64,000 bases of DNA from Deltaproteobacteria bacterium (lineage in GTDB: Bacteria; CG2-30-53-67), in NCBI GenBank assembly GCA_013151235.1, contig JAADIO010000022.1, positions 4,256-68,255 on the forward strand, given 5' to 3'. Under the pieces are notes generated by a model. That model was not told where the DNA came from, searched no databases, and saw only the letters and a list, made by a program, of their open reading frames with translations. This document shows, one piece after another, positions 7,052 to 59,553 of the stretch. Both the position numbers and the translations under genes were made by a program. Every line of letters begins with the position of its first letter. Positions within the stretch are counted from its first letter, which is position 1.

Positions 7052-7645
7052 CTAAGAGGACTTCCGTTCCAGCCGATTCATGGCCGCCATGAGGAAACCG
7101 AGCATGAAAAAAGCACCGGGGGGGAGGATCATCAAAAGCATCGGGAGATATCCCTTCCCGAAGAGGGCAACCCCTAAGAGCGATCCGTTCCCCAAAACTT
7201 CCCGGATACTTCCAAGCAGTGTAAGGGAGAGAGTAAAACCGGCCCCCATCCCGAGACCATCCAGGATGGAATAGAAAACACCATATTGAGAAGCGAAGGC
7301 CTCCGCCCGCCCCAGGATGATACAGTTCACAACAATCAGGGGAATAAAGAGCCCCAAAGATTTATGAAGATCGTGGGCAAAGGCATTCATCATGAGATCT
7401 ACAACCGTCACGAAGGAGGCAATCAGGATGATGAATGCAGGAATCCGGACGCCCCGCGGGATGACCTTCCTCAGAAGGGAGACGGCCGCGTTGGAACAGA
7501 CCAGGACCGCAAGGGTGGCCGCCCCCATACCGAATCCATTGACTGCGCTCGTCGTCACCGCCAACGTCGGGCACATCCCGAGGACCAGTCGAAAGGTCGG
7601 ATTCTCTTTCCAGAGACCCTTGGTAAATTCGTGTATCGCTTTCAT
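7052..7645 (-). CDS. rnfE: Rnf electron transport complex subunit E
   Basis: 197 aa; GLWKENPTFRLVLGMCPTLAVT...IVVNCIILGRAEAF aligns with RsxE/RnfE signature. Confidence 0.9.
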   Translation of the reverse strand: MKAIHEFTKGLWKENPTFRLVLGMCPTLAVTTSAVNGFGMGAATLAVLVCSNAAVSLLRKVIPRGVRIPAFIILIASFVTVVDLMMNAFAHDLHKSLGLFIPLIVVNCIILGRAEAFASQYGVFYSILDGLGMGAGFTLSLTLLGSIREVLGNGSLLGVALFGKGYLPMLLMILPPGAFFMLGFLMAAMNRLERKSS

Positions 7646-7649
7646 TAGA

Positions 7650-8249
7650 TCAATTCTCCCGGAATTCCCTCTTATAGAACTCCAGCCCTTTCTTCACGGC
7701 TTTGACCACCGCCCGGGGAGAGATGGTGGCACCGGTAATCTGATCAATCTCTCCGCCGTCCCGTTTGACCTTGAGGTTGTTCTTCAGGGATTTCCCGATC
7801 AGCCCCCCGGGTCCGCTTCCCCGGCCGGGCCAGGTCTTAACACTTGAGATTTTGGCCCCCAATCCGGGCGTCTCGGAAAGACTGATGATCTCGATCCCCG
7901 TGATCACCCCTTTCGGGTTCACCCCCATCATGATCTCGATGGGACCGCCGTAGCCGTCGGGTGCCACAACCAGGAAGGCCCGGCCCACAACGTTGCCGTC
8001 CTTCTTTCCGATATAAACCCTCCGTACAATATCGTTTCCCTTTCCGTCCTTGCCGATGATCTTATCGACAAATTCGGCATCGGCCTTGTTGTTGTACGGA
8101 GGTAAAACAGCCTTGATGGCCCGGCGGACCTCCTCCGCCTTGGCCTCGGCAATCGGTCCCTTCGTCACATCATAGACCTTTGCCAGAATCCCGGCGGACA
8201 GGATACAGAAGAGTCCCAGGACGATCACTAATTTCAGAGTATCACGCAT
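7650..8249 (-). CDS. rnfG: Rnf complex subunit G (FMN-binding)
   Basis: 199 aa, N-terminal TM, ISLSETPGLGAKI and ITGATISPRAV FMN-binding motifs. Confidence 0.85.
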   Translation of the reverse strand: MRDTLKLVIVLGLFCILSAGILAKVYDVTKGPIAEAKAEEVRRAIKAVLPPYNNKADAEFVDKIIGKDGKGNDIVRRVYIGKKDGNVVGRAFLVVAPDGYGGPIEIMMGVNPKGVITGIEIISLSETPGLGAKISSVKTWPGRGSGPGGLIGKSLKNNLKVKRDGGEIDQITGATISPRAVVKAVKKGLEFYKREFREN

Positions 8250-8326
8250 CGCACCATCCGATTCCCGATTTCAATTTCCCAATTCCTGTTTTCCGGTTCC
8301 CGATTTCGAATCGCTATTTACAAATT

Positions 8327-8508
8327 TGATGAAGTCGTAAAAAGTCCGTTCGACCCTTCGACACGCTCAGGGCGAACGGTGTAAGTCATTGATATTCCGT
8401 TCGTGTGGTTCGGCCGGCTTCCGAGCATGGTGAGCTTGCCGAACCACATGCTCGGAAGCCTGTCGAACCATGAACGGAATCCGAAAACGACTTTTTACGA
8501 CACCATCA
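8327..8508. mobile_element. MITE-like element copy A (182 bp, ~20-bp TIRs, 4-bp TSD AATT)
   Basis: TGATGAAGTCGTAAAAAGTC ... GACTTTTTACGACACCATCA; flanked by AATT at 8323-8326 and 8509-8512; internal long palindromes. Paralogous to 35533-35713. Confidence 0.7.
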
Positions 8509-8527
8509 AATTTCTGATTCCTAATTT

Positions 8528-9607
8528 CTAATTCCCGTTCCCCCGCGTTCCGAAGGTCCCCGGTTTCACCCATCGGTCGATCAGCGGGGTTGCGGCATTC
8601 ATCAGGAGAATCGCAAAGGAGACTCCTTCCGGATAGCCGCCCCAGAAACGGATCGTCATCGTGATCAGGCCGCACCCCACGCCGAAGACCAGCATCCCCC
8701 GGTGGGTCACCGGGCTGGTAACCAGGTCGGTGGCCATGAAGAAAGCGCCGAGGATCAGTCCGCCCGTGACCAGATGAAACTGCGGCGGAGCATAACGGTT
8801 CGGATCGATGCCGTGAAAGAGCGCCGCAATCACCAGAACCGTCCCTAAAAAGCTGAAAGGAATATGCCATGTGATCACCCGTTTCGCAATCAGGTAGAGC
8901 CCCCCGATGATCAGGGCCAGGGCCGAGATCTCACCTAAACTCCCGCCGACATGCCCCAGGAAGGGATCGATGAGGGAGAGATGAGCGATTCCGGAAAGGT
9001 CATGATGGAGAAGAATGGACTCCTTCATTCTTCCTAATGGCGTGGCCCCCGTTACGGTGTCGACCCCCCGCTGGAAAAAGGGCTGCGCCTTCGGCCAGGT
9101 CGTCATCTGGACGGGCCAGGAGATCAGGAGGACCACACGGGCGACAAGAGCCGGGTTGAACAGGTTGTACCCCAGCCCCCCGTAGAGCTGTTTTCCGATG
9201 ATAATGGCGACACCGCTTCCGACGACGCAGAGCCACCAGGGGGCGCCGGCCGGCAGATTCATGGCCAGCAAAATTCCCGTCAGGGCGGCACTCAGATCAC
9301 CAACCGTCACGGTACGATGCATGATCCGTTGCAGGAGTACCTCAAACCCGATCGCCGTAACGGTCGTAATCAGGAGGACCCGGAGGGCATCAAAACCGAA
9401 AAAATAGAGCCCGACGAGCAGGCCCGGTACCAGCGCCAGGATCACATTGTGCATCAACAGAGGGATCGACTCCCCGCTTGCAATATGGGGAGAAGAGGAA
9501 AGGACCAGCGGCTCCGCAGCGGCCTCTTCCTTTTTCTTGACCGGCGCCTTATTCCCTTTCTCATTCGGCGCCGGTTTCGACGTTGTCTCTTTTTTTTCTT
9601 CCGCCAT
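8528..9607 (-). CDS. rnfD: Rnf complex subunit D
   Basis: 359 aa polytopic membrane protein; Lys/Glu-rich N-terminal extension then the NqrB/RnfD core; conserved C-terminal TGATPLG motif. Confidence 0.9.
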   Translation of the reverse strand: MAEEKKETTSKPAPNEKGNKAPVKKKEEAAAEPLVLSSSPHIASGESIPLLMHNVILALVPGLLVGLYFFGFDALRVLLITTVTAIGFEVLLQRIMHRTVTVGDLSAALTGILLAMNLPAGAPWWLCVVGSGVAIIIGKQLYGGLGYNLFNPALVARVVLLISWPVQMTTWPKAQPFFQRGVDTVTGATPLGRMKESILLHHDLSGIAHLSLIDPFLGHVGGSLGEISALALIIGGLYLIAKRVITWHIPFSFLGTVLVIAALFHGIDPNRYAPPQFHLVTGGLILGAFFMATDLVTSPVTHRGMLVFGVGCGLITMTIRFWGGYPEGVSFAILLMNAATPLIDRWVKPGTFGTRGNGN

Positions 9608-9763: not shown

Positions 9764-9840
9764 CCCCGTGCTCCCCGTGGTCAATGCTTTTGATCTTGCC
9801 TTTGCCCCTCTGTGCCTCTGCCCCTTTGCCCCTCTGCCTG
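9764..9840. repeat. inter-cistronic repeat (family member R1) abutting rnfC stop codon
   Basis: CCCCGTGCTCCCCGTGGTCAATGCTTTTGATCTTGCC...TGTGCCTCTGCCCCTTTG about 85% identical to 24481-24560. Confidence 0.7.
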
Positions 9841-11163
9841 TTACTTCTTCTTCCGGGCCATCACCTCGGCCTTGCCGAACCGGATCAGGTGCACCAGCGG
9901 CCGGGCGGCCGGGCAAATAAAGGCACAGGAGCCGCACTCGATACAGTCGAGGATCCGGTTCCCTTCCAGTTCGTCCATGACGCCCGCCTCCACGTAGACA
10001 CCCAACAGACTCGGGTTGATCCGCATGGGACAGGCTTCCACACATTTTCCACACCGAATGCAGGGGCGGGAATCTTTCAGTTTCAGGTCTTCCTCCCGGA
10101 AGACCAGGATCCCCGAAGTACCCTTGATCACCGGGACTTCCAGTGAGTACTGGGTCATTCCCATCATGGGGCCGCCGGAGATGACCTTCCCTCTTTTGCC
10201 TTTAAACCCGCCGCAGTAGTCGATCAGCTCCGAGAAGGGGGTCCCGATCCGGACCCGGAGGTTCTTCGGATCCCGGATGCCCGGGCCGGTAACGGTCGTC
10301 ACCCGTTCAATGAGCGGCATCCCGTCATGAACAGCACAGTAGATGGCAGACGCAGTTCCCACGTTCTGGACCACCACCCCCACATCCATAGGCAGCCCAC
10401 CCGAAGGGACTTCCCGGTTCAGGATGGCCTTGATCAACTGCTTCTCCGCCCCCTGCGGATATTTCACCTTGAGGGGAACCACCTCAATCCCCGGAAGGGA
10501 TACAGCCTCCCGGGACATCACCTCGATGGCATCCGGCTTATTCCGTTCGATTCCGACAACCCCTCGCGAGACCCCCAGAACTTTCATGAGAATCGAAAGA
10601 CCGCCGAGGATCTTCTCCGGCGCCTCCAGCATGAGACGGTGATCGGCCGTCAGGAACGGTTCGCATTCCACGCCATTCACGATGACCGTATCAATCGATT
10701 TCTCGGCCGGCGGGGAGAGCTTCACATGGGTCGGGAAGGTCGCCCCGCCCATGCCGACGATCCCCGCGTCCCGGATCTTTGTCTTCAATTCCCCGGGAGA
10801 AAGAGAAAGAAAATCCTCACATCCCGAAAGGCCGTCGAATTTCCGGTCTTCCCCGTCGGAGTCGATCACAACGGAAGGAACATCCCGCCCGATTGCGTGC
10901 GGCATGGGTGCCACGGCGGTCACGATCCCGGAGATGGAGGCATGGACCGGCGCCGAGACAAACCCCTTTGCACCGCCGATCGGCTGCCCAGCGGAAACGG
11001 TTTCTTTTACCTTGACCAGAGCTTCACAGGGAGCTCCGATATGCTGCTGCAGGGGGATGACAACCCGCTTCGGCAGCGGAAGATTTTCGATCGTTTTCCG
11101 TTCCGTATAGTGTTTTTCTTCGGGAGGGTGAATCCCCCCTGCCGGAAAGGTAAGTGTCTTCAA
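9841..11163 (-). CDS. rnfC: Rnf complex subunit C (NADH-binding, 2x[4Fe-4S])
   Basis: 440 aa; two ferredoxin motifs CIRCGKCVEACP and CIECGSCAFICP. Confidence 0.9.
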   Translation of the reverse strand: MKTLTFPAGGIHPPEEKHYTERKTIENLPLPKRVVIPLQQHIGAPCEALVKVKETVSAGQPIGGAKGFVSAPVHASISGIVTAVAPMPHAIGRDVPSVVIDSDGEDRKFDGLSGCEDFLSLSPGELKTKIRDAGIVGMGGATFPTHVKLSPPAEKSIDTVIVNGVECEPFLTADHRLMLEAPEKILGGLSILMKVLGVSRGVVGIERNKPDAIEVMSREAVSLPGIEVVPLKVKYPQGAEKQLIKAILNREVPSGGLPMDVGVVVQNVGTASAIYCAVHDGMPLIERVTTVTGPGIRDPKNLRVRIGTPFSELIDYCGGFKGKRGKVISGGPMMGMTQYSLEVPVIKGTSGILVFREEDLKLKDSRPCIRCGKCVEACPMRINPSLLGVYVEAGVMDELEGNRILDCIECGSCAFICPAARPLVHLIRFGKAEVMARKKK

Positions 11164-21000: not shown

Positions 21001-21021
21001 ACTTATCCACATATTGTATAT
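21001..21021. repeat. 21-bp perfect direct repeat, copy 1 (ACTTATCCACATATTGTATAT)
   Basis: Identical 21-mer recurs at 21101-21121, exactly 100 bp away, in the AT-rich region upstream of the 20971 GTG start. Confidence 0.8.
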
Positions 21022-21100
21022 AAAATGTGGAAAAACACCATATATAGGAGAACCTCTTGAGGAAAAGTCGAACGATATTCAGGGGTTGGAGAAAGAAAAA

Positions 21101-21121
21101 ACTTATCCACATATTGTATAT
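21101..21121. repeat. 21-bp perfect direct repeat, copy 2
   Basis: See copy 1. Confidence 0.8.
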
Positions 21122-21149
21122 GATTTGTTGAGAACCCTACATATAGTGT

Positions 21150-21644
21150 TTAAAAACGTTCATGACGATCCAGATATACCACTCCCCCATGGATATCTCC
21201 ATCATCAATTTCAAGAAACCCAACGGAAAGGGACCGGCCGTCGCGCATATTCCCTGCCGTACCGGGATTAAAAAAGAGGATCCCGCCGATCCGCTCATTG
21301 CAGGGATGGTGGGTATGGCCGAAGACAACCACATCGGGCCGGACCTGCTGCAAACGCTCTTTCAACAACCGGGGGGGGTGCTTCGGGTTCCCGACCCGGT
21401 GGGTCACCAAAACCCTTTTCCCCTCCAGAGGCACCATACGAAAGCGGGGCAGAGGGTCCGGGGTAAAGGGGGGATCCATATTCCCTCGTACGGCTATGAC
21501 TGGCGCGACCTTTTGCAACCGCATCAGCAGTTGCGGCGACTCGATGTCGCCGGCATGAAGGATCAGATCAACCCCGTCGAAGAGTGCCGGAATCGAGTCG
21601 GGGAGATTGTTGTGAGTATCCGATAAAACACCGATCCTCATCAT
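21150..21644 (-). CDS. metallophosphoesterase (YfcE-like)
   Basis: 164 aa; GDIES, GNMD, GHTH calcineurin-like phosphoesterase motifs. Confidence 0.8.
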   Translation of the reverse strand: MMRIGVLSDTHNNLPDSIPALFDGVDLILHAGDIESPQLLMRLQKVAPVIAVRGNMDPPFTPDPLPRFRMVPLEGKRVLVTHRVGNPKHPPRLLKERLQQVRPDVVVFGHTHHPCNERIGGILFFNPGTAGNMRDGRSLSVGFLEIDDGDIHGGVVYLDRHERF

Positions 21645-24480: not shown

Positions 24481-24560
24481 CCCCGTGCTTCCCCGTGGTT
24501 AATTGCTTTTGATTTTGCGTTGTGCCTCTGCCCCTTTGTGCCTTTGTATCTCTGTGCCTG
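24481..24560. repeat. inter-cistronic repeat (family member R2) abutting atpD stop codon
   Basis: CCCCGTGCTTCCCCGTGGTTAATTGCTTTTGATTTTGCG...GTGCCTCTGCCCCTTTGTGCC; paralog of 9764-9840. Confidence 0.7.
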
Positions 24561-33076: not shown

Positions 33077-34692
33077 AGGGCGGACTGCTGCTCTCTTTTC
33101 TTTTCCTGCTCCTCTTTCCGGTTACCGCCTCCGGCGCAGATGCGGTGGTTTCAGGAGAGGAGGCGCTCCTTTCCCCGGATCGTATCCAACAACTCCTGAA
33201 ACAGAATGAAGTTCCCCTCTCCCTGCAGGCCTGTCTGCAACTTGCCCTGAAGAACAACCTGGAAATCGCCATTGAACGCATTAACCCGGCCATGAGCCGG
33301 CAACGGGTCGAGCAGGCAAAATCAGACTTTGATCCGGTTGTTTCTCTGACTTTATCGAAGGACCGATCCGTCCGGCAGGTCGGCTCCGCCCTGGCCCTTC
33401 CTTCTCAAAATGAACGGGAAGATCTCAAAATGGATGCCGGGATTTCCGGGAAGTGGGTCACCGGAACGGAAACGGAACTGCATTTTACCAGTAACCGCAA
33501 CATAACCAACTCCATCTTTGCCGGCCTTAACCCCTCCTACTCCTCGGAATTGATCCTCTCCCTGACGCAGCCGCTGCTGAAGGACTTCGGGATCTCCGCC
33601 AACACAACCGCTCTCCGGATCGCCTCGAACAATGAGACGATCTCCCAATACCGGTTCGCCGATCAGGTCATGCGGATTCTTTACAATGTGGAATCGGCCT
33701 ATTGGGAACTGGTCTATGCAAAAGATGCCCTGCAGGTCGCTGAGAAATCGTTGAAACGATCGGAAGATTTCCTGAAATTAACGGAAGGGAAGGTGAACGT
33801 CGGGCTGCTCCCCAAGGTGGAGGTCCTGTATGCCGAAGCGGAACAAGCCGCCCGGAAGGAGGGAGTCATCTCCGCCCGGGACAGACTGCAGGATGACGAG
33901 GATCTGCTCCGCAGACTTCTGAACCTTTCAGACATGGAAAACTACTGGGAAATTCATCTGGTGCCCACCGATTCGCCCCGGATCGAACCGGTCAAATCCA
34001 ATCTGACGAGAGAACTGCAGGAGGGTCTGAAACACCGTCCGGACCTGAATCAGGCCCGGATGGACCTGGAGAACCGGAAGATCCGGTTTCGCTATACCCG
34101 GAATCAACTCCTCCCCAGAGTTGACCTGATCGGCTCCCTCGGTCTCAGCGGGCTGGCCGGCAAAGCACTGCCGCAGCAGGATTTTCAGGACCCGACAAAG
34201 ACCGTCCTCAGCCCCTTCAACGGCAACTACAACGATTCTCTGAAAGAATTGGAAAGCGGCGGCAACTACTCTTACTCCCTCGGGATTCAGGTCACCTACC
34301 CCCTGGGAAACCGGGAGGCCAAAAGCAAAATGGTCCTGGCCCGGTTGAAAAAACGGCAGGCCCTTTTCGGCCTCAGGGATCTGGAAAACCGGGTGATACA
34401 GGAGATACGGGAGGCCTACCGGCAGATCCGGACAAACCGGAAAAGGATCGCCGCAACGGAAGCGGCACGGAAGCTCGCCGGGGAACGGCTCAAAAGCGAA
34501 ACCCGCCGCTTCAAATTAGGGATGGCCACCAGTCATGATGTTCTGGAAGATCAGGAGAAATTCGCCCTCGCCCAACGCAATGAACTCCAGGCTCGAATCG
34601 ATTACCGAACCTCCCGTGTCAACCTCGAACGGGTCAAGGGAACGCTGCTTGCGTACAAGGGGATCATCCTGGAGCCGGGCGGCTCACGATGA
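33073..34692 (+). CDS. TolC-family outer membrane efflux protein
   Basis: 539 aa, signal peptide, two OEP repeats; ATGA overlap with purE. Confidence 0.8.
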
Positions 34693-35445
34693 CAGACGTC
34701 TTCCTTCCCGGTTGAAGAGTGCGTTTCGCAGAAGGCCGATACGGTGGAGACGAAACAGGATCCCGGTCTTCAGGACGCCCAGACCATAGGTGACGCTCCG
34801 GGAGAAATTGATCGATGAGGCCTCTTCAAAATATTTTGTGGGACAGGTAATCTCGGCAATCGAATAGCCGAAATAGATGATCTGGGCCAGCATCTGATTA
34901 TCGAAAACAAAATCGTCGGAATTCTCCGCCAGGGGAAGGGTCTCCAAAACCTCACGGGAGAAGGCCCGGTAGCCGGTATGATATTCCGAGAGCTTGTGGG
35001 AGACCAGGAGATTCTCTACCGCCGTCAGGAAACGGTTGCTCATGTATTTGTAGAGCGGCATCCCCCCCCGGAGCGCACCAACGCCCAGGATGCGTGATCC
35101 CAGGACGACATCATAAAGCCCCTCGGCAATCAGGGAAGACATGGCCGTGATCAGCTTGGGGGTATACTGGTAATCGGGATGAAGCATTACCACGATATCC
35201 GCACCCAACTTCAGCGCCTCGGTGTAGCAGGTCTTCTGGTTTCCCCCGTAACCGAGGTTCGCGTGATGCTGAAAGGTCCGGATCCCCAGACGCTTCGCCA
35301 CCTCCAGGGTCCGGTCCGAACTCTTGTCGTCCACCAGGAGGACTTCATCCACAATATCGTGGGGGATCTCATCATAGGTCGCCTCCAATGTCTTTTCAGC
35401 GTTATAGGCCGGCAGGACCACGACAATTTTTTTATGATTCAGCAA
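34684..35445 (-). CDS. GT2 glycosyltransferase (polyprenyl-phosphate sugar synthase-like)
   Basis: VVLPAYNAE...[10 protein letters not shown]...DxD-type GT-A fold motifs. Confidence 0.85.
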
Positions 35446-35532
35446 GGTCGCCTCCTTTCAGTGATTGATACACAAAAACTAAGTGGTCGCGTTCATGGCT
35501 GTACTTCATGGTTGTGTTCCTTGATTCAAGAT

Positions 35533-35713
35533 TGATGGTGTCGTAAAAAGTCACGAAGCCCTTCGACCCTTCGGCCGGCTCAGGACAGGCCCGCTCAGGG
35601 CGAACGGTGTAAGTTATTGATATTCCGTTCGTGTGGTTCGGCCGACTCACCATGCTCGGTAGCCTGTCGAACCATGAACGGAATCCGGAAAATGACTTTT
35701 TACGACTTCATCA
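35533..35713. mobile_element. MITE-like element copy B (181 bp, ~20-bp TIRs, 4-bp TSD AGAT)
   Basis: TGATGGTGTCGTAAAAAGTC ... GACTTTTTACGACTTCATCA flanked by AGAT (35529-35532 and 35714-35717); shares the core CAGGGCGAACGGTGTAAGT.ATTGATATTCCGTTCGTGTGGTTCGGCCG with copy A. Confidence 0.7.
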
Positions 35714-35745
35714 AGATTATTCATGGCCGAGATTTTCCCGGCACC

Positions 35746-37071
35746 TTATTCCACGATCGCTCCTACGAGATCATAGGTATGGGCGTCGGTGATCCGGACA
35801 TCATAGAACTCTCCCACCTCGGCATTCCCCTCGTTGATCAGTACCTGCCCGTCGATCTCCGGCGCCTGTCCATAGTATCGGCCGGCAAGGAGCAGATCGG
35901 TCTCGGAAGAATGTCCTTCCACGAGGACTTCGAGAGTCCGGCCGATCCGTTCCTCATTCCGTTCTCCGGAGATCCCCGCCTGTATCTCCATCAGGATTCC
36001 CCGGCGCTCTTTTCGCACTTCCGGCGGGACCGGGTCGGGGAGCAATGCCGCGGAAGTTCCTTCTTCCCGGGAATATTCAAAGACCCCTACATGATGGAAG
36101 CGAACCTCCCGGACAAAATCGCAGAGAGTATGAAAATCCCCTTCTCCCTCGCCGGGAAATCCGACGATCAGGCTGGTTCGCAGAACCACGTCGGGAAGGA
36201 TCTCCCGCACCTTCCCGATCCGACGGTACAAATCCTCCGCCGTTACCTTCCGGTGCATCTTCTTGAGGATCGGGTCGCTGATGTGCTGAACCGGCAGATC
36301 GAGATAGGGCAGAACCTTCTTCTCCGAGGCAACGAACCCGATCAGTTCATCCGAGAGATGGTCGGGGTGGAGATACATGAGACGGATCCACCGCACTCCC
36401 TCGATGCCGGAAAGTTCCTGCAGCAGGACCGGCAAAGCATTCGGTTCACCCCGGTCGGACCCGAACCGGGTGATGTCCTGACCGATCACGATCAGTTCCC
36501 GCACCCCCTGATCGACCAACCCCTTCGCCTCTTCGATCAATTCCGAGCGATCCCGGCTCCGGTGGGGTCCCCGGATCAAGGGAATCGTGCAGTAACTGCA
36601 CCGATGGCTGCACCCCTCGGAGATCTTCAGGTAGGCGGTATAAAAAGGGGTCAGGAGGGTCCGTGCAACGGGAGCATGATCCGGCTCCTCCGTCATACCG
36701 CTTCCCTCTTCGTGTAGAATCCGGTCGATCCCGGCCACAATCCGACTTTCCTCGGAAAGAGTCAGAAAGGCATCGACCTCGGGGATCTCCTTTTCCAGTT
36801 CCGCCCGGTACCGCTCCGCCAGGCAGCCGGTCACAATCACCCCCTCAAGATCCCCCGCCTCTTTCCGGCGGCAGTATTCAAGGATCGTGTCGATCGACTC
36901 CTCCCGGGCGGATTCAATAAAACCGCAGGTGTTGATCAGGATCAGATCCGCTTCACGCTCATCTCCCGTCAGTCTATAGCCGGCTTTGCGCAGACGGCCC
37001 GCCATCTCCTCACTGTCAACCAGATTTTTCGGGCAGCCCAGAGAGATCAGGCCGATTTTTTTTACACTCAT
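35746..37071 (-). CDS. rimO: ribosomal protein S12 methylthiotransferase (radical SAM, MiaB-family)
   Basis: KIGLISLGCPKNLVDSE N-terminus, radical-SAM CxxxCxxC (CSHRCSYC), C-terminal TRAM domain. Confidence 0.85.
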   Translation of the reverse strand: MSVKKIGLISLGCPKNLVDSEEMAGRLRKAGYRLTGDEREADLILINTCGFIESAREESIDTILEYCRRKEAGDLEGVIVTGCLAERYRAELEKEIPEVDAFLTLSEESRIVAGIDRILHEEGSGMTEEPDHAPVARTLLTPFYTAYLKISEGCSHRCSYCTIPLIRGPHRSRDRSELIEEAKGLVDQGVRELIVIGQDITRFGSDRGEPNALPVLLQELSGIEGVRWIRLMYLHPDHLSDELIGFVASEKKVLPYLDLPVQHISDPILKKMHRKVTAEDLYRRIGKVREILPDVVLRTSLIVGFPGEGEGDFHTLCDFVREVRFHHVGVFEYSREEGTSAALLPDPVPPEVRKERRGILMEIQAGISGERNEERIGRTLEVLVEGHSSETDLLLAGRYYGQAPEIDGQVLINEGNAEVGEFYDVRITDAHTYDLVGAIVE

Positions 37072-37772
37072 GGCTGCTCGATCACCATCACACCATCGGG
37101 GACCTTGAACCGGAAAAAGGAATCAGCCAGCCCCTGGTTGATCTTCACGTTCCGAAAGTAGAGTTCCGTGACATTGCCGTAGAGGTCGTATTGATCAATC
37201 CGGCCGACATGAAAATCCTTCTTGTCGACGAAGAGGAGGATCCGGGCCAGTCCCACGGCCTTCGAATCCCTGGGCGTCAGTTGCAGGATATCCCGGGTCG
37301 ACCGGTCAAAAGCGGGGTCTTTGTTGAATGAGATGGAATAATCCTTTTCGGCGGACTTCAACCCTTCAAAAAAAACCAGGGGAGAACGGACGCCCCCCTT
37401 CCCCGAGAGTTTCACCTTCCGGGCCTGGCGGATCTCCGGAGAATACTGGATCACCTCGTCACCGTCGATAAAATACTGATCCTTCGAGGGGCTGGAATAA
37501 TCCCAACGCATCTTCCTTTTGCGCTTGAGGTAGACACGTCCCTCGGAACGCTGATCTTCCGGATAAGAAAGGATCCGCGCCACCTGAACAAAGTCGGCCT
37601 GAAAATCCTTGAGCGACCGGTAATGGGCTTCGACCCCGGCAATTACGGAAGAGAGTAACTTTCCTGCATTCCCCTCGGCAGCAACAACCCTGGGGAGGAC
37701 AACGGTCCACAACAGGATGAAGAGGAAAACCCGACAGCCTGTCTTTGAGAATCCCTTCAAAACCCGTTTCAT
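37068..37772 (-). CDS. lolA: outer-membrane lipoprotein carrier LolA-like
   Basis: 234 aa, signal peptide, LolA family; adjacent to ftsK as in many genomes. Confidence 0.7.
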   Translation of the reverse strand: MKRVLKGFSKTGCRVFLFILLWTVVLPRVVAAEGNAGKLLSSVIAGVEAHYRSLKDFQADFVQVARILSYPEDQRSEGRVYLKRKRKMRWDYSSPSKDQYFIDGDEVIQYSPEIRQARKVKLSGKGGVRSPLVFFEGLKSAEKDYSISFNKDPAFDRSTRDILQLTPRDSKAVGLARILLFVDKKDFHVGRIDQYDLYGNVTELYFRNVKINQGLADSFFRFKVPDGVMVIEQP

Positions 37773-46598: not shown

Positions 46599-48812
46599 TC
46601 ACCGATCGGCATGAGCCCAGGCAACGGCACGGTCGTAGTCCTTACCGATCGGCGTGCCGCGATAGTTGATGTTACGAGCGAGCAACGGAACGCCGGCAGG
46701 CGTGGTGCGATGGCACGCGCTGCACTCCACGGGTCCGGTGGAACCATCCGGGTTGTACTGGACCGCCTGCTGCGGCGACACCTCGTCATTGCCCAGGGGA
46801 TTGACCGGGAAAAGGCCGTGGGCCGCCTGATGGCACCCCTGGCAGGTGATCCCGGCATGGGCACTCGAAAAACGCATCAGACTGTATTTCTGTGGTTGAT
46901 CGACGGGGAAAAAACCACCCCCCATCGATTCCACAAAGGGCGGAGCGTGACAGTCGGCGCAATGCGGCAGACCCGCTGAAAACCAGTAATCCTTGCTGCC
47001 GGAGACATCACCATAAGAGACAGGAACGGCACCGTCCACTGCCGTTGCCGACACCGTGCCGTCTTTCTTCCGGTACCCGAGCGGTGCCCCTTTGCCCCGC
47101 TCCCAGGTAGCTTCGTTCCTGTCCCGCCCCTTCACTACCTTCGGGTCCAGGTAGCGGTCGATAAGCTGCTGCACGTCACCGCCGGTGAGTACCGCAGCAA
47201 TTTCCGGGATCGTTTTATTCCGCAATCCCGCTCCCGCGCCCGTCGCCGTATCGGTCAGCCGGTCCGCCCGGTAAAGGGCAATGGAAAGTCGGTTGTGACA
47301 GTGCGTGCAATAGAGCCCCCGGTCCTTGCCCTCCTCATCCCAGACGGTATCAAGGTACCATTTCCCGATCGCGTTCAGGTGACTCTTTGTGTGCAGTTCG
47401 GCCGCCCGGTACGGGTTTGAGTGGACGTCGCGGCCGGTGTAACTGCCTGCGGCATCCCGGTTGTCCCCCTTCGCGTACCGGTTGGCGCCATCCCGGGTAA
47501 CGGGGAAACGATCGAACCGACCCGCATCCGAGTGGGCCGGGTGGCACATCTGACAGTTCCCGGGCCGCCCCCCGGCGTCCGGAGCGGGCATCACCTCGGC
47601 ATGTTTTCTGTGTATCGCCTCGGTCAGCGACAACCGCGCCCGCACCTTCGAGTCGGCAATATTGGTCATGGGGCTGTCGTTCATCCGGAGACGACCGATG
47701 ACGTTATCCGCGTGGCACGAGGGACAGAAAACCGTCTGGCGACCCAGGCGGTTGAGGCTCGAGTTGTTGCTGTAGTTCCAGGTAAAATGGGTCTGCTCGT
47801 CCTTGTCGTGAAGTTCGAGGATGGAAATGGCCGCCGCCTGGGTGGTGGAGAAATGCTCGGTAGAATCACTGTAGGTCTTCAGCCAATAGCTGTATTCCGC
47901 TCGGTACTTCTTCGCCCGGTCGCCGTTCGCACGCTTCGTGCCATGGCACCGATCACAGGAGGGAGCATCGACGGGGATTACCCCCATGGCGGTCATGACA
48001 CTGCCGTCACGATCCATCACGAAACGGCCGGCTTTGTCCCGCAAGGTGATGATCACCCGCTGATAGGGCTGGTACTCCACCTCCTTGCCCGAACGGAGGC
48101 TTTTGTTTCCGCGCGAGTAGTCGAGGTAGGGAGTAAGCGGTAACCCTACGGCATCCCACAGATCAGGCGGAGCGAGGGGGATCGGGATATCGGTCGTGTC
48201 GTTTTCTCCGTCAACGAAAAAGCGTACGCCGCTCTCGCCGGTATAGTGAAGACTACGATCACGCTTCAGAATCGGCGGCCAATCAGTAATGCGCCGGCCG
48301 GTGATCCCATGGTCGTCATCGGGAGGGTGGGTATTCCAGACGTAAATGCGATCCTTCGCCGTCGCCCCGGCCGGTCGGACGCCATCGGGCCGACCGTAGG
48401 TATAATAGGGACGGATGAACTCGACCGGTGGCTGGTCGAAGGGATCGAGCCGCTCCCCGTTCCGGTCAACATCATACTTGACCCCCCAGTAGGAAAGCTT
48501 GTTGCCGGAGGAATAGGAATTTCCCTGAAAACCGAACTCGGGCTGCACACCGTCCGTCGGGGTCATCAGTTTCGGCGGCGTCCCGTCCGATCCTTCCGTA
48601 CGGATTACCTGTACCTGCACGCTGTTAAAGGGAGGCAGGGCGGCCGTATATTTGAAATCGAAGCTGGTGATGTGCATCCCCAATTCCGAATGGATCAGGA
48701 TTACATAACGGTGCTGGGGCTCATGGAACTCTTCCAGGGCAGGTGCCCTAACCGGAAACAACGCAACCATGCCCAGGAACAGCAGGACAATCCTCGTGCA
48801 ATAAGCGCTCAC
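46599..48812 (-). CDS. 7-heme c-type cytochrome with N-terminal non-heme domain (paralog of the 1662-aa cytochrome)
   Basis: GTG start overlapping the PPIase stop (GTGA); signal peptide; CXXCH motifs CDRCH, CPSCH, CQMCH, CTHCH, CADCH, CQGCH, CSACH. Confidence 0.85.
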   Translation of the reverse strand: MSAYCTRIVLLFLGMVALFPVRAPALEEFHEPQHRYVILIHSELGMHITSFDFKYTAALPPFNSVQVQVIRTEGSDGTPPKLMTPTDGVQPEFGFQGNSYSSGNKLSYWGVKYDVDRNGERLDPFDQPPVEFIRPYYTYGRPDGVRPAGATAKDRIYVWNTHPPDDDHGITGRRITDWPPILKRDRSLHYTGESGVRFFVDGENDTTDIPIPLAPPDLWDAVGLPLTPYLDYSRGNKSLRSGKEVEYQPYQRVIITLRDKAGRFVMDRDGSVMTAMGVIPVDAPSCDRCHGTKRANGDRAKKYRAEYSYWLKTYSDSTEHFSTTQAAAISILELHDKDEQTHFTWNYSNNSSLNRLGRQTVFCPSCHADNVIGRLRMNDSPMTNIADSKVRARLSLTEAIHRKHAEVMPAPDAGGRPGNCQMCHPAHSDAGRFDRFPVTRDGANRYAKGDNRDAAGSYTGRDVHSNPYRAAELHTKSHLNAIGKWYLDTVWDEEGKDRGLYCTHCHNRLSIALYRADRLTDTATGAGAGLRNKTIPEIAAVLTGGDVQQLIDRYLDPKVVKGRDRNEATWERGKGAPLGYRKKDGTVSATAVDGAVPVSYGDVSGSKDYWFSAGLPHCADCHAPPFVESMGGGFFPVDQPQKYSLMRFSSAHAGITCQGCHQAAHGLFPVNPLGNDEVSPQQAVQYNPDGSTGPVECSACHRTTPAGVPLLARNINYRGTPIGKDYDRAVAWAHADR

Positions 48813-58010: not shown

Positions 58011-58112
58011 ATTCTACCCAATGAGCGGCCAGAACAAATAAAAAGATAACATGATGAAAAGAAGGGACTTATTTCGGAGCAAGACAGCCCGTCAACCGGT
58101 TATGCAGGTATT

Positions 58113-58166
58113 CGATAGCGTGAATATATGAAATAATTTTCCTTTTTTGTGAAAAGATTTTCCCAC
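58113..58166. promoter_or_regulatory. conserved upstream element A with inverted repeat GTGAAAAGATTTTCCCAC (candidate enhancer/UAS)
   Basis: ~85% identical to 59500-59553; centred ~150 bp upstream of the sigma-54 -24 element. Confidence 0.55.
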
Positions 58167-59393: not shown

Positions 59394-59499
59394 ATCCAAA
59401 CCGGAGCAAGGCAGGTTGGGGGAAAAACCGGGTAACCCACTGATAACATAAATAATTATTTTATACCACAAGAGACCGACAACGGCTCATTCCGCTATT

Positions 59500-59553
59500 C
59501 GACAAATCGAATATATGAAATGTTTTTCCTCTTTTGTGAAAAATTTTTCCACT
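59500..59553. promoter_or_regulatory. conserved upstream element B with inverted repeat GTGAAAAATTTTTCCAC
   Basis: Paralog of 58113-58166; centred ~150 bp upstream of the 59393 sigma-54 promoter; its 3' end overlaps a plus-strand -35 hexamer. Confidence 0.55.

Follow-up and report, generated by a model that had tools for sequence, protein, structure and literature searches.

The stretch of DNA analyzed here (the window; 64,000 nt of contig JAADIO010000022.1, Deltaproteobacteria bacterium) comes from a metagenome-assembled genome (MAG) of an uncultured bacterium of the sulfate-reducer type. It holds two closely related short elements, A in the spacer between rnfD and rnfG and B in the spacer between rimO and a gene for a family-2 glycosyltransferase (GT2), and we are confident that both are genuine copies of a MITE (miniature inverted-repeat transposable element). 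This identification follows from their small size, the lack of coding sequence, terminal inverted repeats (TIRs), a target-site duplication (TSD) of fixed length and variable sequence, dispersed copies (two in 64 kb, plus the carriers listed from other genomes) and empty orthologous sites. An earlier note on this DNA had described A as a 182-bp element with TIRs of about 20 bp between rnfD and rnfG, and the range it gave, 8323-8512, proved to be the element together with both TSDs. The AATT said to flank A and the AGAT said to flank the second copy at 35533-35713 were likewise found in place. The parts of the two elements are as follows (loci from other genomes carry L numbers).

8327..8508, no strand assigned: element A, probable MITE of 182 bp in the rnfD-rnfG spacer; nested hairpin without credible coding capacity.
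35533..35713, no strand assigned: element B, probable MITE of 181 bp in the rimO-GT2 spacer; absent from the syntenic relatives L134-L137.
8327..8346, plus strand: left TIR of A, TGATGAAGTCGTAAAAAGTC; matches the family consensus TGATG-nnn-TCGTAAAAAGTC.
8489..8508, minus strand: right TIR of A, forward letters GACTTTTTACGACACCATCA, reverse complement TGATGGTGTCGTAAAAAGTC; read from the sequence.
35533..35552, plus strand: left TIR of B, TGATGGTGTCGTAAAAAGTC; same variant as in the right TIR of A.
35694..35713, minus strand: right TIR of B, which ends GACTTTTTACGACTTCATCA, reverse complement TGATGAAGTCGTAAAAAGTC; same variant as in the left TIR of A.
8323..8326, no strand assigned: left TSD copy of A, AATT, read directly; the L128 spacer aligns gap-free with one copy removed.
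8509..8512, no strand assigned: right TSD copy of A, AATT, read directly.
35529..35532, no strand assigned: left TSD copy of B, AGAT (ATCT in the sense direction); the ortholog L135 has a single ATCT here.
35714..35717, no strand assigned: right TSD copy of B, AGAT, read directly.
8352..8379, no strand assigned: interior palindromic module of A, with the string ...TTCGACACGCTCAGGGCGAACGG ending at 8379; resembles intergenic palindromes that proteobacterial megaplasmids hold in multiple copies.

The TIRs of A and B are 20 nt each (TGATGnnGTCGTAAAAAGTC), and within each copy 18 of the 20 positions are complementary, the mismatch in A being at positions 6-7. Their 13-mer core, GTCGTAAAAAGTC, is found exactly in four places of the window, which are solely the four element ends, when about one match would be expected by chance even with two mismatches allowed. 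A terminus-like match at about 21505-21526 was rejected as weak, inside coding sequence and due to chance. The description of both elements as non-coding and highly self-complementary was borne out, as the only open reading frames (ORFs) touching A or B overlap rnfD and rimO, out of frame or in antisense direction, and the predicted folds reach -96.9 kcal/mol for A (z -10.3 vs shuffles) and -81.7 kcal/mol for B (z -6.7).

A and B share 94.9% identity over 158 aligned nt and are separated by two palindromic indel blocks of about 23-24 nt; judged from this alignment, the similarity is consistent with a fairly recent common descent. In A an extra nested hairpin (CCGAGCATGGTGAGC...CATGCTCGG) is present, of which B has one arm only. 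The whole block is missing from L030 (JAJRUP010000144.1), the only listed locus with the same interior (91% over 134 nt, without the central palindromic expansion). The two elements had been said to lie in the same orientation, and this holds for their interiors but not for their ends. From one copy to the other, the AA/GT terminus variants (positions 6-7) have changed ends (8332-8333/8502-8503 in A vs 35538-35539/35707-35708 in B), and these sites make up four of the eight mismatches between the copies. As the terminus variants are swapped while the orientation of the interior is kept, the interior is inverted relative to the tips between A and B, which suggests that it may have been turned around through recombination, or a template switch, involving the inverted 13-nt cores.

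The interior also holds a module of its own, CCGTTCG...TTCGACACGCTCAGGGCGAACGG (8352-8379 in A, 35559-35606 in B), which resembles palindromic intergenic repeats found in 5-13 places per record on megaplasmids of Sphingobium, Comamonas and Novosphingobium (L132 200-285; L133 150-280). Among the Desulfobacterota loci the module is confined to the subfamily of A, B and L030, and both homology and convergence are possible. A plasmid collection gave matches to this interior module only and none to the terminus.

Empty orthologous sites had been named as a check on mobility, and the search for them was informative for both elements: exact for B in L135, and for A in that the element is missing from the rnfD-rnfG spacers of relatives. 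The gene order ftsK-lolA-rimO-GT2-OEP around B is conserved in four loci found via RimO homologs (L134-L137). In L136 and L137 (77% relatives) rimO and GT2 overlap, and in L134 (82% relative) they are separated by a 73-bp spacer. The 148-bp spacer of L135 (80% relative) holds the exact unoccupied B site with a single ATCT. It reads ...CACGAATAATCT|CGAATCAAAGAACACAACCTTGAAGTACAGCCACG, as compared to ...CATGAATAATCT(181-bp element)ATCT|TGAATCAAGGAACACAACCATGAAGTACAGCCATG on the sense strand of the window, and the core of the comparison is ...GAATAATCT|CGAATCAAAGAACACAACC... in L135 vs ...GAATAATCT(181 bp)ATCT|TGAATCAAGGAACACAACC... in the window. By this comparison of orthologs, B was inserted cleanly and ATCT was duplicated in the process. 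In the case of A, the terminus was absent from the rnfD-rnfG spacers of all relatives examined (80-87% RnfG identity). L126 (80% relative) has an element-free spacer of 30 bp, and in L128 (87% relative) the spacer consists solely of a 7-nt tandem array, which could be aligned without gaps to the flanks in the window once A and one AATT were removed. Taken together, the alignments show both A and B as lineage-specific insertions, missing from the orthologous spacers.

Other small repeats were seen in the same rnf spacers. Relatives whose RnfG is 82-87% identical, L124 (1165-1357), L122 (1950-2500) and L129 (40-540), have the spacer between rnfD and rnfG filled with palindromic repeats of other, unrelated kinds, one of which has the ends GTGGGTCTGTTCGTAAA.../...CTTTACGAATAGGGCCAC. 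In this lineage small repeats thus seem to land in this spacer repeatedly. A itself is flanked on both sides by an array with a 7-nt period (8258-8305 and 8509-8535; GGGAAUU/AGAAAUU in the sense direction, GGA-rich). This array is conserved in L128 (470-590), and purine-rich arrays are found in the L122 and L129 spacers as well. An array with an 8-nt period lies between rnfC and rnfD (9799-9838; sense roughly CAGAGGGG/CAAAGGGG), and further short arrays are located at 24521-24546 and 47085-47109 of the window. The repeated GGA motifs in the rnf spacer arrays are reminiscent of CsrA-binding sites, by analogy.

To place A and B in a wider family, the exact terminus TGATGNNGTCGTAAAAAGTC was used as query over one genome per bacterial and archaeal species, and the figures that follow rest on the matches listed, at least 120 stretches in at least 88 assemblies, with up to 6 contigs per assembly. 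The expectation of further copies elsewhere was thereby confirmed. The carriers listed are nearly all Desulfobacterota (Desulfobacterales, Desulfobulbales, Desulfatiglandaceae, Desulfoarculaceae and Smithella/Syntrophaceae). Exact termini were also seen in bins labelled Zetaproteobacteria/Mariprofundus, Aminicenantes, Myxococcota and, once, Promethearchaeota, and on one IMG/VR 'viral' contig (off-group labels at L038, L061, L086, L101, L039, L115, L096 and L001). These bins may reflect binning error or contamination, or horizontal spread.

Elements were defined by pairing inverted termini 60-600 bp apart, with a filter of at most 3 mismatches. The 74 paired elements among the matches listed are 83-293 bp long (median 153.5 bp), and the medians for GC and fold z are 44% and -6.3. 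The terminus consensus, TGATG-nnn-TCGTAAAAAGTC with TG...CA tips, shows a conservation of at least 88% over positions 1-5 and 9-20, which falls to about 35-45% from position 21, a sharp edge that is real. Interiors are unrelated between genomes, leaving the 20-bp terminus as the sole part conserved family-wide among the matches listed.

Some copies depart from the usual form. A minimal version of 47 bp, two termini around a 7-nt loop, was seen in L092 (206-252). Head-to-tail tandem pairs, 4-7 nt apart, were seen in L064 (4128-4457) and L072 (6305-6614), which suggests insertion next to an existing copy or into its flank. Just after ftsK in L135, L136 and L137 (1164-1187 in each) there is a perfect 24-nt hairpin with TGATG...CATCA tips, TGATGACTTCTTGC(G/A)AAGTCATCA, either a terminator-like palindrome that arose by chance or what is left, in minimal form, of a family member.

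The flanks of the listed elements gave a clear result. Among the 72 elements with readable flanks a perfect 4-bp duplication was found in 46, and another 11 matched at three of the four positions, while in the control, the next-outer tetramers, only 2/72 matched perfectly. The duplicated tetramers were of 30 different sequences, which is in line with the reading of the different TSDs of A and B as marks of independent transposition events. The flanks were also biased in composition (n=72), with A at -5 (65), A at -4 (54), T at -1 (53), A at +1 (52), T at +4 (48) and T at +5 (64). The preferred target is A|ANNT|T, AT-rich and roughly palindromic, and the TSDs of both A (AATT) and B (AGAT) conform to it. 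AATT is itself palindromic, and for A alone the TSD is indistinguishable from a longer inverted repeat; it is counted as a target duplication because the family-wide flank data decide the ambiguity.

A native, conserved cis-regulatory structure, or a palindrome that arose by chance or through assembly, would also show a strong fold and could lie between cistrons, as A and B do. Such a structure is, however, missing from the orthologous spacers of every relative examined, the same termini recur in unrelated contexts in at least 88 independent assemblies, and four exact 13-mer cores are more than chance would give in the window. In Rfam the whole window gave no match at gathering threshold, and an E-value cutoff of 1 returned sub-threshold hairpin noise only. 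The empty site and the cross-genome distribution effectively refute this explanation, to which we assign next to no probability.

The flank data also bear on a second alternative, that of a palindromic repeat of the REP/REPIN type spread by a single-copy RAYT enzyme (HUH/tyrosine type) and not a MITE mobilized by a transposase. No IS-borne transposase was found in the carrier loci examined, the interior module looks like the multi-copy palindromes of Sphingobium, Comamonas and Novosphingobium replicons, and conservation of the terminus over many species is what its recognition by a vertically inherited host enzyme would lead one to expect. By definition REP/REPIN repeats have no TSD and no 20-bp TIRs framing a variable interior. 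In the present family, in contrast, a 4-bp TSD is the rule, the exact empty site is that of a clean insertion with duplication, and no conserved gene was flanked by the repeats or recurred beside them among the loci examined. We therefore regard a REP/REPIN origin as very improbable.

If A and B are MITE copies, the termini would serve as binding and cleavage sites for a DDE-type transposase acting in trans, which would cut the target with a 4-bp stagger, and repair of the gaps would yield the duplication. The TG...CA tips and a duplication in the range of 3-5 bp would fit, by general descriptions of these families, an enzyme of the IS3/IS21/IS481-like, retroviral-integrase type. The interior would be free to vary through palindromic expansion and contraction and through inversion between repeats, and the two indels and the swapped terminus variants of A and B can be read as such growth or shrinkage and inversion. 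Within the rnf and rimO-GT2 units the element would most likely be a tolerated passenger that is read through.

Several observations weigh against the identification as MITE. The source is a MAG, and the count of copies in the genome itself covers only the 64-kb window. The conservation of the terminus is partly imposed by how the family was collected, by an exact-match scan followed by the filter of at most 3 mismatches, and the subfamily with the A/B interior amounts to three copies among the matches listed (A, B and L030). A scan of metagenome contigs with an interior 21-mer gave two matches, both by chance and without termini. The empty site of A lies in the 7-nt tandem array, where the register of the alignment may slip, and a polymorphic empty allele, which would join CTATTTACAAATT|TCTGATTCC, had no match to the exact junction 22-mer in metagenome contigs. 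About 0.9 Mb of carrier loci yielded neither an autonomous element nor a transposase bearing these termini, and ORFs within 2.5 kb of 92 unpaired termini formed no recurrent family, the sole cluster being two response regulators. A partner insertion sequence (IS) was likewise not found in the plasmid collection or in the searched literature, with ISfinder and whole carrier genomes outside the search. Terminus pairs 0.6-4 kb apart (at most 3 mismatches; then at most 5 with a matching 4-bp flank) were considered as autonomous partners and rejected, as all enclose ordinary genes, among them a YkgJ-like ORF and one that resembles apolipoprotein N-acyltransferase. MAG assemblies often lack insertion sequences, and the missing partner is therefore weak evidence.

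The near-invariance of the terminus across Desulfobacterota orders, the turnover of the interiors and the lack of a visible IS partner led us to a further reading, in which the terminus would be kept by a conserved, possibly single-copy or domesticated host transposase, similar to the REP-RAYT arrangement but with a real TSD, and hairpins in operon spacers would be used as punctuation for RNA processing or stability. We consider this combination quite unlikely.

A role at the RNA level depends on where the copies are placed. The genes around A and B are all encoded on the minus strand, with identities assigned by Pfam:

9841-11163, minus strand: rnfC (Pfam).
8528..9607, minus strand: rnfD (Pfam NQR2_RnfD_RnfE, E 8e-121); stop codon 19 nt from A.
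7650..8249, minus strand: rnfG (Pfam FMN_bind; a 100% identical database protein is named RnfG); start 77 nt past A.
7052-7645, minus strand: rnfE (Pfam).
37068-37772, minus strand: lolA-like (Pfam).
35746..37071, minus strand: rimO (Pfam UPF0004 + Radical_SAM + TRAM_2; a 100% identical protein is named RimO); stop 32 nt from B.
34684..35445, minus strand: GT2 (Pfam Glycos_transf_2); start 87 nt past B; follows rimO in all relatives examined.

Both elements hence occupy intercistronic gaps of minus-strand units close to the next start codon, as had been stated, at measured distances of 77 nt for A and 87 nt for B. Family copies were intergenic in 57/58 evaluable cases among the matches listed, 42 of them between co-directional, 10 between divergent and 5 between convergent neighbours, and both orientations relative to flanking transcription were found (17 vs 8).

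The earlier note had further proposed that the element may be exapted as a processing, stability or internal-promoter module of the RNA. In its more specific form this would be a MITE by origin, co-opted in both transcription units as an RNase III site, an mRNA stabilizer or an attenuator of cistron ratios. Such a role would agree with the location of A and B between genes read in the same direction, with 77 and 87 nt left to the next downstream start and with co-oriented interiors, with the 42/57 listed family copies between co-directional ORFs, and with a predicted sense RNA whose stems, terminal as well as internal, run to about 15-20 or more consecutive pairs. RNase III cleavage at the termini of a MITE also has a precedent in Correia elements (PMC10969869). 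By analogy, RNase III would plausibly act on the long double-stranded stems if these are co-transcribed, as a possible consequence of the insertion. The two strands, however, fold equally well (A -93.7/-93.7 kcal/mol; B -78.3/-80.0 kcal/mol) with few G-U pairs on either, which makes the palindrome a property of the DNA. Furthermore, orthologous operons of relatives do without the element, family members occur in both orientations, and a co-directional excess is expected for any intergenic insertion in compact bacterial genomes. No sigma-70 promoter or intrinsic-terminator consensus was found in A or B or at their edges. With the lack of an Rfam match added, the proposed exaptation was not supported, and we regard co-option as unlikely.

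Two other repeats were noted in the window. A 34-nt palindromic motif, ACTTATCCACATATTGTATATAAAATGTGGAAAA, occurs twice in intergenic DNA 100 bp apart (21001-21034 and 21101-21134), each copy with a perfect DnaA-box 9-mer (TTATCCACA). A DnaA-box cluster at about 21000 was rejected, as the window has 12 matches with at most 1 mismatch vs 8.4 expected, and the pair is more likely a tandem operator than a replication origin. A direct repeat of 95 nt (58069-58163 and 59456-59550; 74% identity, 1.39 kb apart) has an AT-rich end (…GAATATATGAAAT…TTTTGTGAAAA…) and may represent duplicated upstream regions of paralogous genes.

In practice, A and B belong to a new and widespread family of a well-known type, and are fairly ordinary mobile elements. 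Such elements are frequent in Desulfobacterota MAGs, where they may end contigs (several termini are at contig ends) and inflate operon spacers such as that of rnf, and with a defined terminus, TSD length and target motif they can be masked and used as markers of insertion polymorphism. One 20-bp terminus that spans at least 88 species, frames unrelated interiors and has no transposase known for it makes the search for the mobilizing enzyme a well-posed one. The rnf spacer, with its hairpin of about -95 kcal/mol between rnfD and rnfG, also lends itself to testing whether such insertions affect the stoichiometry of an operon for a membrane complex. Current understanding is left as it stands, since MITEs within operons are already documented (Chunjie, Correia).

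Among known systems, the IS3 family (and also IS21 and IS481) has TG...CA termini, a duplication of 3-5 bp and a preference for AT-rich targets. The TGATG...CATCA tips and the 4-bp duplication of the present family agree with IS3, but these features are common to other families and not diagnostic, and an IS3/IS21/IS481 parentage is only a lead. Like REP, BIME and REPIN repeats the elements are intergenic, palindromic and multi-copy, and the interior module of A and B is REP-like; unlike them, they are framed by 20-bp TIRs and a TSD, which REPs lack.

Correia elements of Neisseria (CREE/NEMIS) are also hairpin MITEs with TIRs, of about 100-155 bp. They have 26-bp termini of unrelated sequence, a TA duplication, IHF sites and promoter hexamers, whereas here the terminus differs, the duplication is 4 bp and no promoter consensus was found in A or B. 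Correia, ERIC and RUP elements are functional analogues, but with other termini and duplications. Correia elements are often co-transcribed with their neighbours, and RNase III cleavage at their termini and effects on operon expression are documented (PMC10969869). In the searched literature, with ISfinder and subscription journals outside the search, neither the terminus nor the interior module sequence was found, and no MITE was described for Desulfobacter-type genomes; the Desulfobacterium autotrophicum genome paper reports many repeats, which were not characterized there.

The closest match in kind is Chunjie, a MITE of Geobacter uraniireducens Rf4 (Chen et al. 2008, via PMC3184786 and PMC10969869, and compared here as far as these accounts go). 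The host is likewise formerly 'delta-proteobacterial', and Chunjie is 178-235 bp long with TIRs of about 21 bp and a hairpin predicted to be very stable, at about -98 to -130 kcal/mol (PMC3184786, PMC10969869). According to the same accounts its copies are also variable in size and mostly intergenic, and the founding copy is inside the pst operon, which is left unbroken. Unlike the present family, with 4-bp duplications and a median GC of 44%, Chunjie is described as A+T-rich and flanked by 9-bp direct repeats (PMC3184786), and it is reported there from one genome, whereas the present terminus is found in at least 88 species-level assemblies. On the strength of these accounts, Chunjie is the nearest described analogue but a different family, set apart by the 9-bp repeats.

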